From IMG/VR virus record IMGVR_UViG_2541047435_000017: 6,926 bases of DNA. One strand, given 5' to 3'. This document shows positions 3,612 through 4,346 of this stretch, piece by piece. The translations under genes and the position numbers were made by a program. This DNA is from a virus (lineage: Duplodnaviria > Heunggongvirae > Uroviricota > Caudoviricetes). Position 1 is the first letter of the stretch, and each line of letters opens with the position of its first letter. The notes under the pieces are model-generated. The model was given only the letters and a program-made list of their open reading frames with translations. It did not search any database and was not told the DNA's origin.

Positions 3612-4346
3612 ATGGAGACTGTTTTTGACGCACTGAAAGCGATGGGAAAAGCCACGTCGGTATAGCTGGCTGCGCGACTTGATATCAGTCGTGAAGAAGT
3701 ACTGAACGAGCTGTGGGAACTGAAAAAGGCTGGCTTCGTTGATAAAAGCGTATACACCTGGCGTGTGGCTGATAACAACGTTCAGCAGGAACAGCCAGCG
3801 CCAGAAGAAACCACCACGGCAACAGAAGCGAAAATCTCAGAGTGCGATTTAACCGCGACGATTGAACAACGCGGACCACAAACGGCGGATGAACTGGCTA
3901 CGCTGTTCGGTACAACATCCCGCAAAGTTGCTTCAACGCTGGCAATGGCAATCAGCAAAGGTCGTCTGATTCGCGTAAACCAGAACGGTAAAATTCGTTA
4001 CTGCATACCAGGTGATAATTTACCAGCAGAGCCGAAAGTTGAATCGGTAGCGGAAACCGATGGTAAAGCCTTTCCTCAGCCAGCCGGTGTTGCGTTACCG
4101 GTACAGAAAGATGCAACACAGGAAGATATTAAAACAGAAACTGTGGCGGACATTGTGCAGTCGCTGCCATCGTTTACTGCAACGCGAGAAGATGATTTGA
4201 TTTTGCCATCGCTGCATATGGCAAATCGCGAACTGCGTAGGGCGAAGAATCATGTCCAGAAGTGGGAGCGAGTCTGCGCCGCGCTGCGGGAGCTGAACAA
4301 GCACCGGGATATGGTTGCCGGGATTTGTCGGAAGTCCGGGCAATGA
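3612..4346 (+). pseudogene. tandem winged-helix (DUF1627-like) phage protein interrupted by an in-frame amber codon (TAG 3663-3665) at codon 18
   Basis: Strong SD (GGGAGGAAATTT) before ATG 3612. Translation is [55 protein letters not shown]... and continues in the same frame to TGA 4344-4346. The stop sits inside the first winged-helix motif. The only in-frame restart is GTG 3765. Confidence 0.6.

Follow-up and report, generated by a model that had tools for sequence, protein, structure and literature searches.

Among the closest described relatives of the locus considered here is ydaW of the cryptic Rac prophage in Escherichia coli K-12, a decayed copy or pseudogene that is truncated rather than interrupted by a point nonsense change. 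This K-12 gene provides the sole experimental trace that we found for its family, DUF1627/YdaW. Bobonis et al. found in their TIC/TAC screen that Rac ydaW, when overexpressed, was one of the prophage genes that block the retron-Sen2 toxin RcaT (bioRxiv 10.1101/2020.06.22.160242). The K-12 protein is shorter than that of O55:H7 (PMC9308461). Searches found DUF1627 in just three papers, none of them a functional study, and no literature on the present locus by its locus tags or accession. That locus lies at 3612-4346 in a stretch of 6926 nucleotides of phage DNA (IMG/VR record IMGVR_UViG_2541047435_000017; Caudoviricetes), the whole of which we call the window. It belongs by its profile matches to the same family, homologues being labelled ydaW or 'YdaW family protein' in phage records, and its reading frame is broken by an amber codon at codon 18. 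We consider it to be a young nonsense pseudogene, the outcome of ordinary gene decay within a defective prophage rather than a system of recoding or suppression, and put the probability of this at about 0.88.

The elements of the gene are these, with winged helices abbreviated as WH, the Shine-Dalgarno sequence as SD, helices and strands of the predicted fold as H and E, and the confidence of the AlphaFold2 model given as the predicted local distance difference test (pLDDT):

3600-3605, + strand: SD sequence GGGAGG of the DUF1627/YdaW-family gene, read from the sequence, 6 bases before ATG 3612
3612-3662, + strand: first 17 codons (METVFDALKAMGKATSV), the same as the N-terminus of the intact homologues P0001 and P0004-P0020
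3663-3665, + strand: amber codon TAG, codon 18; the ancestral codon was GAG (Glu18), and the G at 3663 has become T
3666-4346, + strand: the remaining 226 sense codons and TGA (4344-4346), encoding what is left of WH1 together with all of WH2 and the C-terminal helix, otherwise undamaged
3666, + strand: CTG start directly after the TAG, used for the CDS 3666-4346 of the Prokaryotic Genome Annotation Pipeline (PGAP; WP_077744273.1, 226 aa); SD energy -3.0 kcal/mol
3765-3767, + strand: GTG, codon 52, the first canonical in-frame start after the stop, at which the curated annotation of Sakai begins ECs_5720 (193 aa); SD energy -0.9 kcal/mol
3621-3767, + strand: predicted WH1, codons 4-52, pLDDT 94-98, with H1 4-11, H2 16-23, H3 27-40 and strands 43-46 and 49-52
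3840-4004, + strand: predicted WH2, codons 77-131, pLDDT 89-97, with H77-87, H92-99, H103-115, E120-124 and E127-131
4212-4340, + strand: predicted long C-terminal helix, codons 201-243, pLDDT 83-95

The gene is well initiated, as the original prediction held. The SD sequence GGGAGG at 3600-3605 precedes ATG 3612, and the computed energy of its duplex with the anti-SD is -10.3 kcal/mol. The stop was also correctly placed, at 3663-3665 after 17 codons; the frame, then said to be open for about 225 codons, runs through 226 sense codons to the TGA. A stop-free run of 226 codons would be expected by chance at ~(61/64)^226, i.e. ~2e-5. The 51 bases 5′ of the TAG align base for base with the start of the intact homologues, and the upstream segment is thus real coding sequence and not a chance open reading frame (ORF). 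A mechanical ORF list opens the remainder at GTG 3765, giving 193 aa. Homologues that all began near 3765 would have told against the original prediction, and this is not what is found: those down to ~22% identity all begin at the equivalent of ATG 3612. On this frame the 17 codons at 3612-3662 are all that the strong start can now translate. Two statements about codon 18 itself do not stand. A Gln codon (CAG) or similar was expected there, and the ancestral codon is GAG (Glu); the stop was placed inside the first recognition helix, and codon 18 lies in helix 2 (16-23) rather than in H3 (27-40).

Family membership is clear from profile searches. With codon 18 filled, the protein matches Pfam DUF1627 (PF07789) over residues 84-236 scoring 308.8 bits where the cut-off is 28.1 (E 7.8e-93), and PHROG 630 over residues 1-242 (E 2.5e-121). 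The family is small, with 176 representatives at 50% clustering (E <= 1e-3). Its intact relatives are 220-260 aa in length and align from residue 1. A full-length member would have WH1, WH2 and the C-terminal helix in one protein of ~220-260 aa; here all of these parts are encoded, and the TAG splits them. Judged against this architecture, we have here a member of the DUF1627/YdaW family that has been disrupted, a pseudogene.

How did the amber codon arise? The prophage PPompW_14040 (LC567818) differs from window positions 3560-4360 at just 1 of 801 bases, having G for T at 3663, and the annotation of its CDS begins at the ATG and gives 244 aa. This bears out the proposal of a single-base nonsense lesion, recently acquired, in an otherwise intact gene. 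O55:H7 TB182A and O145:H28 RM12761 likewise have G at 3663, in a syntenic and intact 244-aa CDS (WP_000450692.1). Glu18 is invariant in an alignment of 68 close homologues (A1), and Glu is the consensus at this codon among 43 relatives at 22-66% identity (A2). None of the 68 and none of the 43 sequences has a stop at codon 18.

The same interval, 3560-4360, is 100% identical to prophage Sp9 of Sakai and to EDL933, as well as to many other O157:H7 chromosomes, and the Sakai copy, with the gene at Sakai coordinates 1,766,762-1,767,496, falls inside an annotated 'prophage Sp9; lambda-like phage'. This identity assigns the window to lambdoid prophage Sp9/CP-933O of E. coli O157:H7, whose early region it represents and which is of the ompW-integrated 'PPompW' type. 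A 61-mer centred on the TAG is found exactly in 293 complete E. coli records. Among the matches listed, every record with a serotype label is O157 or O157:H7; carriers of the allele include Sakai, the re-sequenced EDL933, TW14359, EC4115 and Xuzhou21. A GAG 99-mer, which takes in the end of the P gene, is found exactly in 224 records. These include O145:H28, O55:H7 (CB9615, RM12579), O26:H11, O111, O103 and O121, and an O157:H7 label appears on none of the 60 listed (of 224). O145:H28 and O157:H7 share a lineage (PMC3893438), and O55:H7 has been described as the ancestral strain (PMC12981562). The distribution of the two alleles, taken with the ancestry of O55:H7, places the mutation on the O157:H7 branch after the O55:H7 split, and it is fixed in the sampled population. 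Compared with O55:H7, O145:H28 and PPompW there are about six derived sites in 6.5 kb (650, 1343, 2079-2080, 3663 and 6349). The event is recent, and the absence of secondary damage in the frame is as expected. Thus two properties of a nonsense pseudogene are found here: intact orthologues exist in sister lineages in the same genomic context, and the lesion is reproducible across independent assemblies (293 records).

A deletion variant was considered as a possible intragenic revertant of the TAG. Positions 1740-1750 of Logan contig L006 (run ERR14980420), equivalent to 3660-3671 of the window, show a 12-bp in-frame deletion of codons 17-20, to give a 240-aa protein (P0003). This was set aside: the contig has the non-O157 TT at 2079-2080, so that the deletion may equally have occurred on the GAG allele, and it is a single contig.

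What remains of the gene has little in its sequence to direct expression. The first canonical start after the stop, GTG 3765, lies 100 nt 3′ of the TAG. No sigma-70-like promoter site was found on the + strand within 3612-4346, and no tRNA gene in the window; the tRNAs of the Sakai prophage Sp4 (Ile-CAT, Arg-TCG and Arg-TCT) are not suppressors. A search of Rfam over the window gave sok RNA only, far from the gene, which offers no RNA-element explanation for the stop. Thus, as far as can be read from the DNA, the remainder has neither an alternative start with initiation signals nor a promoter of its own. The public annotations disagree over where it begins (GTG 3765 or CTG 3666), and neither flags a pseudogene. 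The unmarked records allow truncated 'proteins' to be propagated in databases. On the evidence of the weak SD pairing, both annotated starts, CTG 3666 and GTG 3765, are artefactual, each being without a ribosome-binding site. The allele is most likely null or near-null.

The intact protein is predicted to contain two winged helices, in agreement with the earlier label of a tandem winged-helix gene. Our final AlphaFold2 model was built on the diverse alignment of 43 relatives and has a mean pLDDT of 82.2. It replaced a first model based on the 68 close homologues (84-96% identical to the first of them), for which the mean pLDDT was 54.5 and for which Foldseek gave no match at E <= 1e-3. The topology H1-(S1)-H2-H3-wing is present twice in the final model (pLDDT 89-98). 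There is a disordered linker between WH1 and WH2, and a second disordered stretch follows WH2. The amber codon interrupts WH1 within H2, the first helix of its helix-turn-helix (HTH), and WH1 is the best conserved segment of the family in the diverse alignment. The top matches in the Protein Data Bank (PDB) by Foldseek are tandem-WH proteins, led by ScpB (E 3.4e-4) and followed by ESCRT-II, UFL1/DDRGK1 and SelB. Comparison of the family profile with the PDB gave borderline matches (E 6e-4 to 5e-3), including AspA (6e-4), the Z-alpha domain of ADAR1 (9e-4) and NmtR (1.2e-3). A PDB search with the single sequence gave a weak match to MntR only (E 0.53), in which WH1 aligns to the winged HTH of MntR. 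No curated HTH profile scored above threshold (HTH_20, 24.6 against 27 bits; TrmB, 19.5 against 25.6; HTH_Crp_2 also below), so that it is the predicted fold that supports the winged-helix assignment. The two putative WH segments gave no alignment with each other in BLASTP, and the internal repeat is visible at the level of the fold only.

The long C-terminal helix is a probable coiled-coil or dimerization element in the model, and includes a motif of 17 residues that is conserved among close homologues. From the predicted structure we infer that the YdaW-family product would be a dimeric nucleic-acid-binding early protein. The C-terminus of the present sequence differs from the commoner DIVRQIVDSSGRIVSEK ending of the homologues. 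Such a divergent end suggests that the recombination junction of a cargo insertion falls in the last codons of the gene.

These observations can be brought together in a simple explanation. The intact form of the protein has 244 aa, and its gene directly follows the O-like and P-like genes of the rightward early operon. A single G-to-T transversion converted GAG to TAG at codon 18, in the O157:H7 lineage after the O55:H7 split. Ribosomes starting from the SD and ATG 3612 would now release a peptide of 17 residues. The 226 codons beyond are still undamaged because the lesion is young, and have neither a ribosome-binding site nor a promoter of their own. At most, traces of full-length protein might be made by basal UAG readthrough, or traces of a restart product that lacks WH1. 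The loss would be tolerated in a prophage that was already defective, in a genome that has intact paralogues. These are found in Sakai at Sp4 (ECs_1075, 256 aa, 61% identity) and Sp6 (ECs_1511, 238 aa, 63% identity), and Megablast reveals six places in Sakai with similarity to the gene. Fragmentary versions of the family form PHROGs of their own (11856, 16668 and 29124). The published study of the Sakai prophages describes Sp9 as defective in recombination, portal and head functions, with a repressor that has no peptidase domain, and as still being spontaneously excised and packaged in Sakai (PMC2669165). Since Sakai carries the amber codon, the gene is not needed for excision or packaging. 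Loss of function and neutrality of the allele are what we would infer from all this.

A number of points weigh against reading the locus as a simple pseudogene. A restart or readthrough product may be made at a low level. Poole et al. in 1995 reportedly found that C after the stop, as in the UAG-C here, is a comparatively weak context for termination. The lack of a second lesion in 226 codons is in keeping with a recent event, and equally with a truncated product that is still under selection. Fixation in the sampled O157:H7 could be due to hitch-hiking in a clonal lineage or to positive selection, between which the data cannot separate. Lastly, 'all O157:H7' refers to complete genomes as sampled and to serotype labels, which are missing from many records, and leaves out the early-branching O157 lineages, namely sorbitol-fermenting O157:H- and β-glucuronidase-positive (GUD+) strains.

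Fixation is the one respect in which the young-pseudogene reading could be extended rather than replaced. The inactivation may have been adaptive in the O157:H7 ancestor, for example by crippling the lytic programme of Sp9 and locking in the prophage that carries paa, or by removing a harmful interaction with a host system. This is compatible with the gene being a pseudogene, as the two readings differ solely in why the allele became fixed. All sampled O157:H7 carry it, and the nonsense change is found among only about six derived sites in 6.5 kb. The family occurs as fragments in other phages (phrog_11856, phrog_16668 and phrog_29124) and as a pseudogene in the K-12 Rac prophage, and the action of K-12 ydaW as a blocker of the retron-Sen2 toxin hints at an interplay with host defence. 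Against this, a young clonal lineage such as O157:H7 fixes neutral changes by descent, and there is no sign of the same lesion recurring independently. We regard an adaptive origin as unlikely.

Another possibility is that the remnant encodes a functional protein that is truncated at its N-terminus, made by reinitiation at GTG 3765 (193 aa) or CTG 3666 (226 aa), that would keep WH2 and the C-terminal helix and lose WH1 wholly or in part. The whole of the Pfam DUF1627 region (84-236) is encoded beyond GTG 3765 in an ORF that is undamaged after the stop, and both public annotations call a CDS there. There are classical cases of restart after an early amber codon, such as the restart proteins of lacI and the secondary initiation region of the rpoS amber allele of K-12. 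Yet the SD energies are -0.9 kcal/mol for GTG 3765, 100 nt past the stop, and -3.0 kcal/mol for CTG 3666, a very poor initiator, compared with -10.3 kcal/mol for the original start. There is no internal promoter-like site, and the domain lost is the one most conserved in the family. Among full-length members of the family none begins at the corresponding position, and the short representatives are scattered fragments. We think a functional protein of this kind quite improbable.

A more elaborate version of these ideas is that the allele was selected, either because a low-level restart product that lacks WH1 and retains WH2 and the conserved C-terminal helix acts as a dominant-negative partner of the intact paralogues in Sp4, Sp6 and other lambdoid prophages of the cell, or because the loss alters the interplay with host defence. 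If true, a single O157:H7-specific base would rewire cross-talk within the pool of defective prophages. This is speculative, and we would give it very little weight.

Full-length protein might instead be made by amber suppression, or by programmed readthrough of the UAG-C. The strong start is retained and the downstream frame is intact, and UAG followed by C is a leaky context. But wild-type E. coli reads through at a basal level of some 1% or less, no tRNA gene is found in the window and the tRNAs of Sp4 are not suppressors. A stop that is found in no homologue is not programmed, and recoding thus fails its defining test. The original prediction had left room for a gene that relies on suppression, or on reinitiation at GTG 3765. 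Neither receives support from the weak SD sequence (-0.9 kcal/mol), from a + strand promoter-like site or window tRNA gene, both of which are absent, or from conservation of the stop, and reliance on readthrough seems to us highly improbable. The remaining suggestion, that the T at 3663 is a sequencing or assembly artefact and the true base is G, could appeal to the single-base difference from near-identical prophages and is effectively excluded by the identical TAG 61-mer in 293 complete E. coli records, which were assembled independently and come from many laboratories and platforms.

The surroundings of the gene are those of an early region of a lambdoid prophage followed by cargo. Cro, the CII-like protein and the O-like protein are placed from the order of genes across the window:

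866-1273, - strand: DicA-like repressor (annotation and Pfam)
1350-1577: Cro
1561-2112: CII-like/YdaT-family protein
2084-3124: O-like replication protein with a DnaT domain
3117-3578, + strand: lambda-P-like replication gene (Pfam Phage_lambda_P, E 1.3e-16), in the same rightward early operon
4343-4507, + strand: ORF of 54 codons (phrog_30109, E 6e-17), whose ATG overlaps the TGA of the YdaW-family gene (ATGA, 4343-4346)
4512-5045, + strand: decayed fimbrial-subunit gene, lying between the YdaW-family gene and paa and described by PGAP as 'frameshifted; internal stop'
5206-5964, + strand: paa/adfO adhesin gene (AcfC family, SBP_bac_11 fold, E 5.5e-34), carried as cargo with the early region on one side and hokD on the other
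6153-6302 and 6243-6455, + strand: hok/sok type I toxin-antitoxin module (Rfam sok RNA RF01794, 103.9 bits, overlapping the mok/hokD frame)

The ATGA overlap at 4343-4346 suggests that the 54-codon ORF is translationally coupled to the YdaW-family gene, and its translation is then possibly lowered by the upstream stop. Such coupling is probable, and a polar or uncoupling effect on the ORF possible. The fimbrial pseudogene is also present in O55:H7 and O145:H28, and so predates the amber mutation.

Two of the other O157-derived changes fall in or near coding sequences of this region. The change of TT to GG at 2079-2080 creates a G run 4-5 nt upstream of the ATG of the O-like gene (2084), and, in the overlapping CII-like/YdaT-family gene, also replaces Ser by Ala close to the C-terminus. 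It could alter the initiation of translation of the replication gene. The derived C-to-T change at 6349 replaces Thr by Ile in HokD, relative to O55:H7 and O145:H28. The start of the P-like gene presents a separate problem. Its frame is open from ATG 2913, overlapping the O-like gene by ~210 nt, and the Pfam lambda-P match starts at profile position 32, upstream of both ATG 3117 (PGAP) and ATG 3156 (Sakai). Either the N-terminus of the P-like protein is much shorter than that of lambda P, or the true start is uncertain.

Over positions 1-6549 the window differs from Sp9 of Sakai and EDL933 by three substitutions and one indel (1184, 6459, 6485 and 6543). The right end, 6550-6926, departs from Sp9, with ~430 bp missing and the rest 86.5% identical, and instead shares 98.6-98.7% identity with the equivalent part of Sp4 and Sp6. 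Among complete E. coli genomes none was found that matches 6200-6926 above ~97% over most of its length. The right end would thus be either a mosaic that arose when lambdoid prophages recombined or an assembly chimera.

The value of these results is mainly for annotation, in that the locus is better annotated as a pseudogene of the 244-aa WP_000450692.1. In addition G3663T provides a clean derived marker that distinguishes O157:H7 from O55:H7, O145:H28 and other enterohaemorrhagic E. coli with the same ompW-type prophage, among the complete genomes sampled. The analysis also provides a confident model, at the level of prediction, of tandem winged helices and a C-terminal helix for the uncharacterized DUF1627/YdaW family. 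For the rest it is one more case of point decay in the pool of defective O157 prophages, and opens no new question.

How does the locus compare with systems already described? At the level of fold it resembles ScpB (PDB 3w6j, 2z99), which also has two consecutive WH domains and is matched by Foldseek with E 3.4e-4 and a probability of 1.00 over ~150 aligned columns. The identity is ~17%, however, the root-mean-square deviation is 11-16 Å owing to domain orientation, and ScpB has neither the long disordered linker nor the C-terminal helix; no functional relationship is implied. The early amber alleles of lacI and rpoS likewise have an in-frame amber codon near the beginning of an intact frame, with an in-frame GTG or CTG downstream. 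In those genes restart products have been shown experimentally, and the restart sites are near the stop or have initiation signals. In the present case the first canonical start is 100 nt away and has no SD sequence, and the locus is known from sequence alone. The resemblance is superficial because no initiation signals follow this stop.

Other parallels come from the genomic setting. In the 'defective prophage pool' of Sakai (Asadulghani et al. 2009, PMC2669165) Sp9 is listed with several inactivated functions, and point, insertion sequence (IS) and deletion lesions are the rule. That account scores modules (repressor, recombination, morphogenesis), and its relevant passages do not mention the gene or the amber codon. 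The ydaW gene of the K-12 Rac prophage belongs to the same family (PF07789) and occupies the same place, directly after the lambdoid replication genes. DNA identity to Rac-type copies is only ~76-90%, and here the whole frame survives, one base from an intact allele. The intact orthologue is the gene for WP_000450692.1 in O55:H7, O145:H28 and PPompW. It lies in the same prophage among the same neighbours (the DicA-like repressor, Cro, the CII-like, O-like and P-like proteins, paa and hokD), in a region that is 99.8% identical over 6.5 kb. What sets it apart is GAG at codon 18 and translation as 244 aa, with the annotation starting at the ATG.

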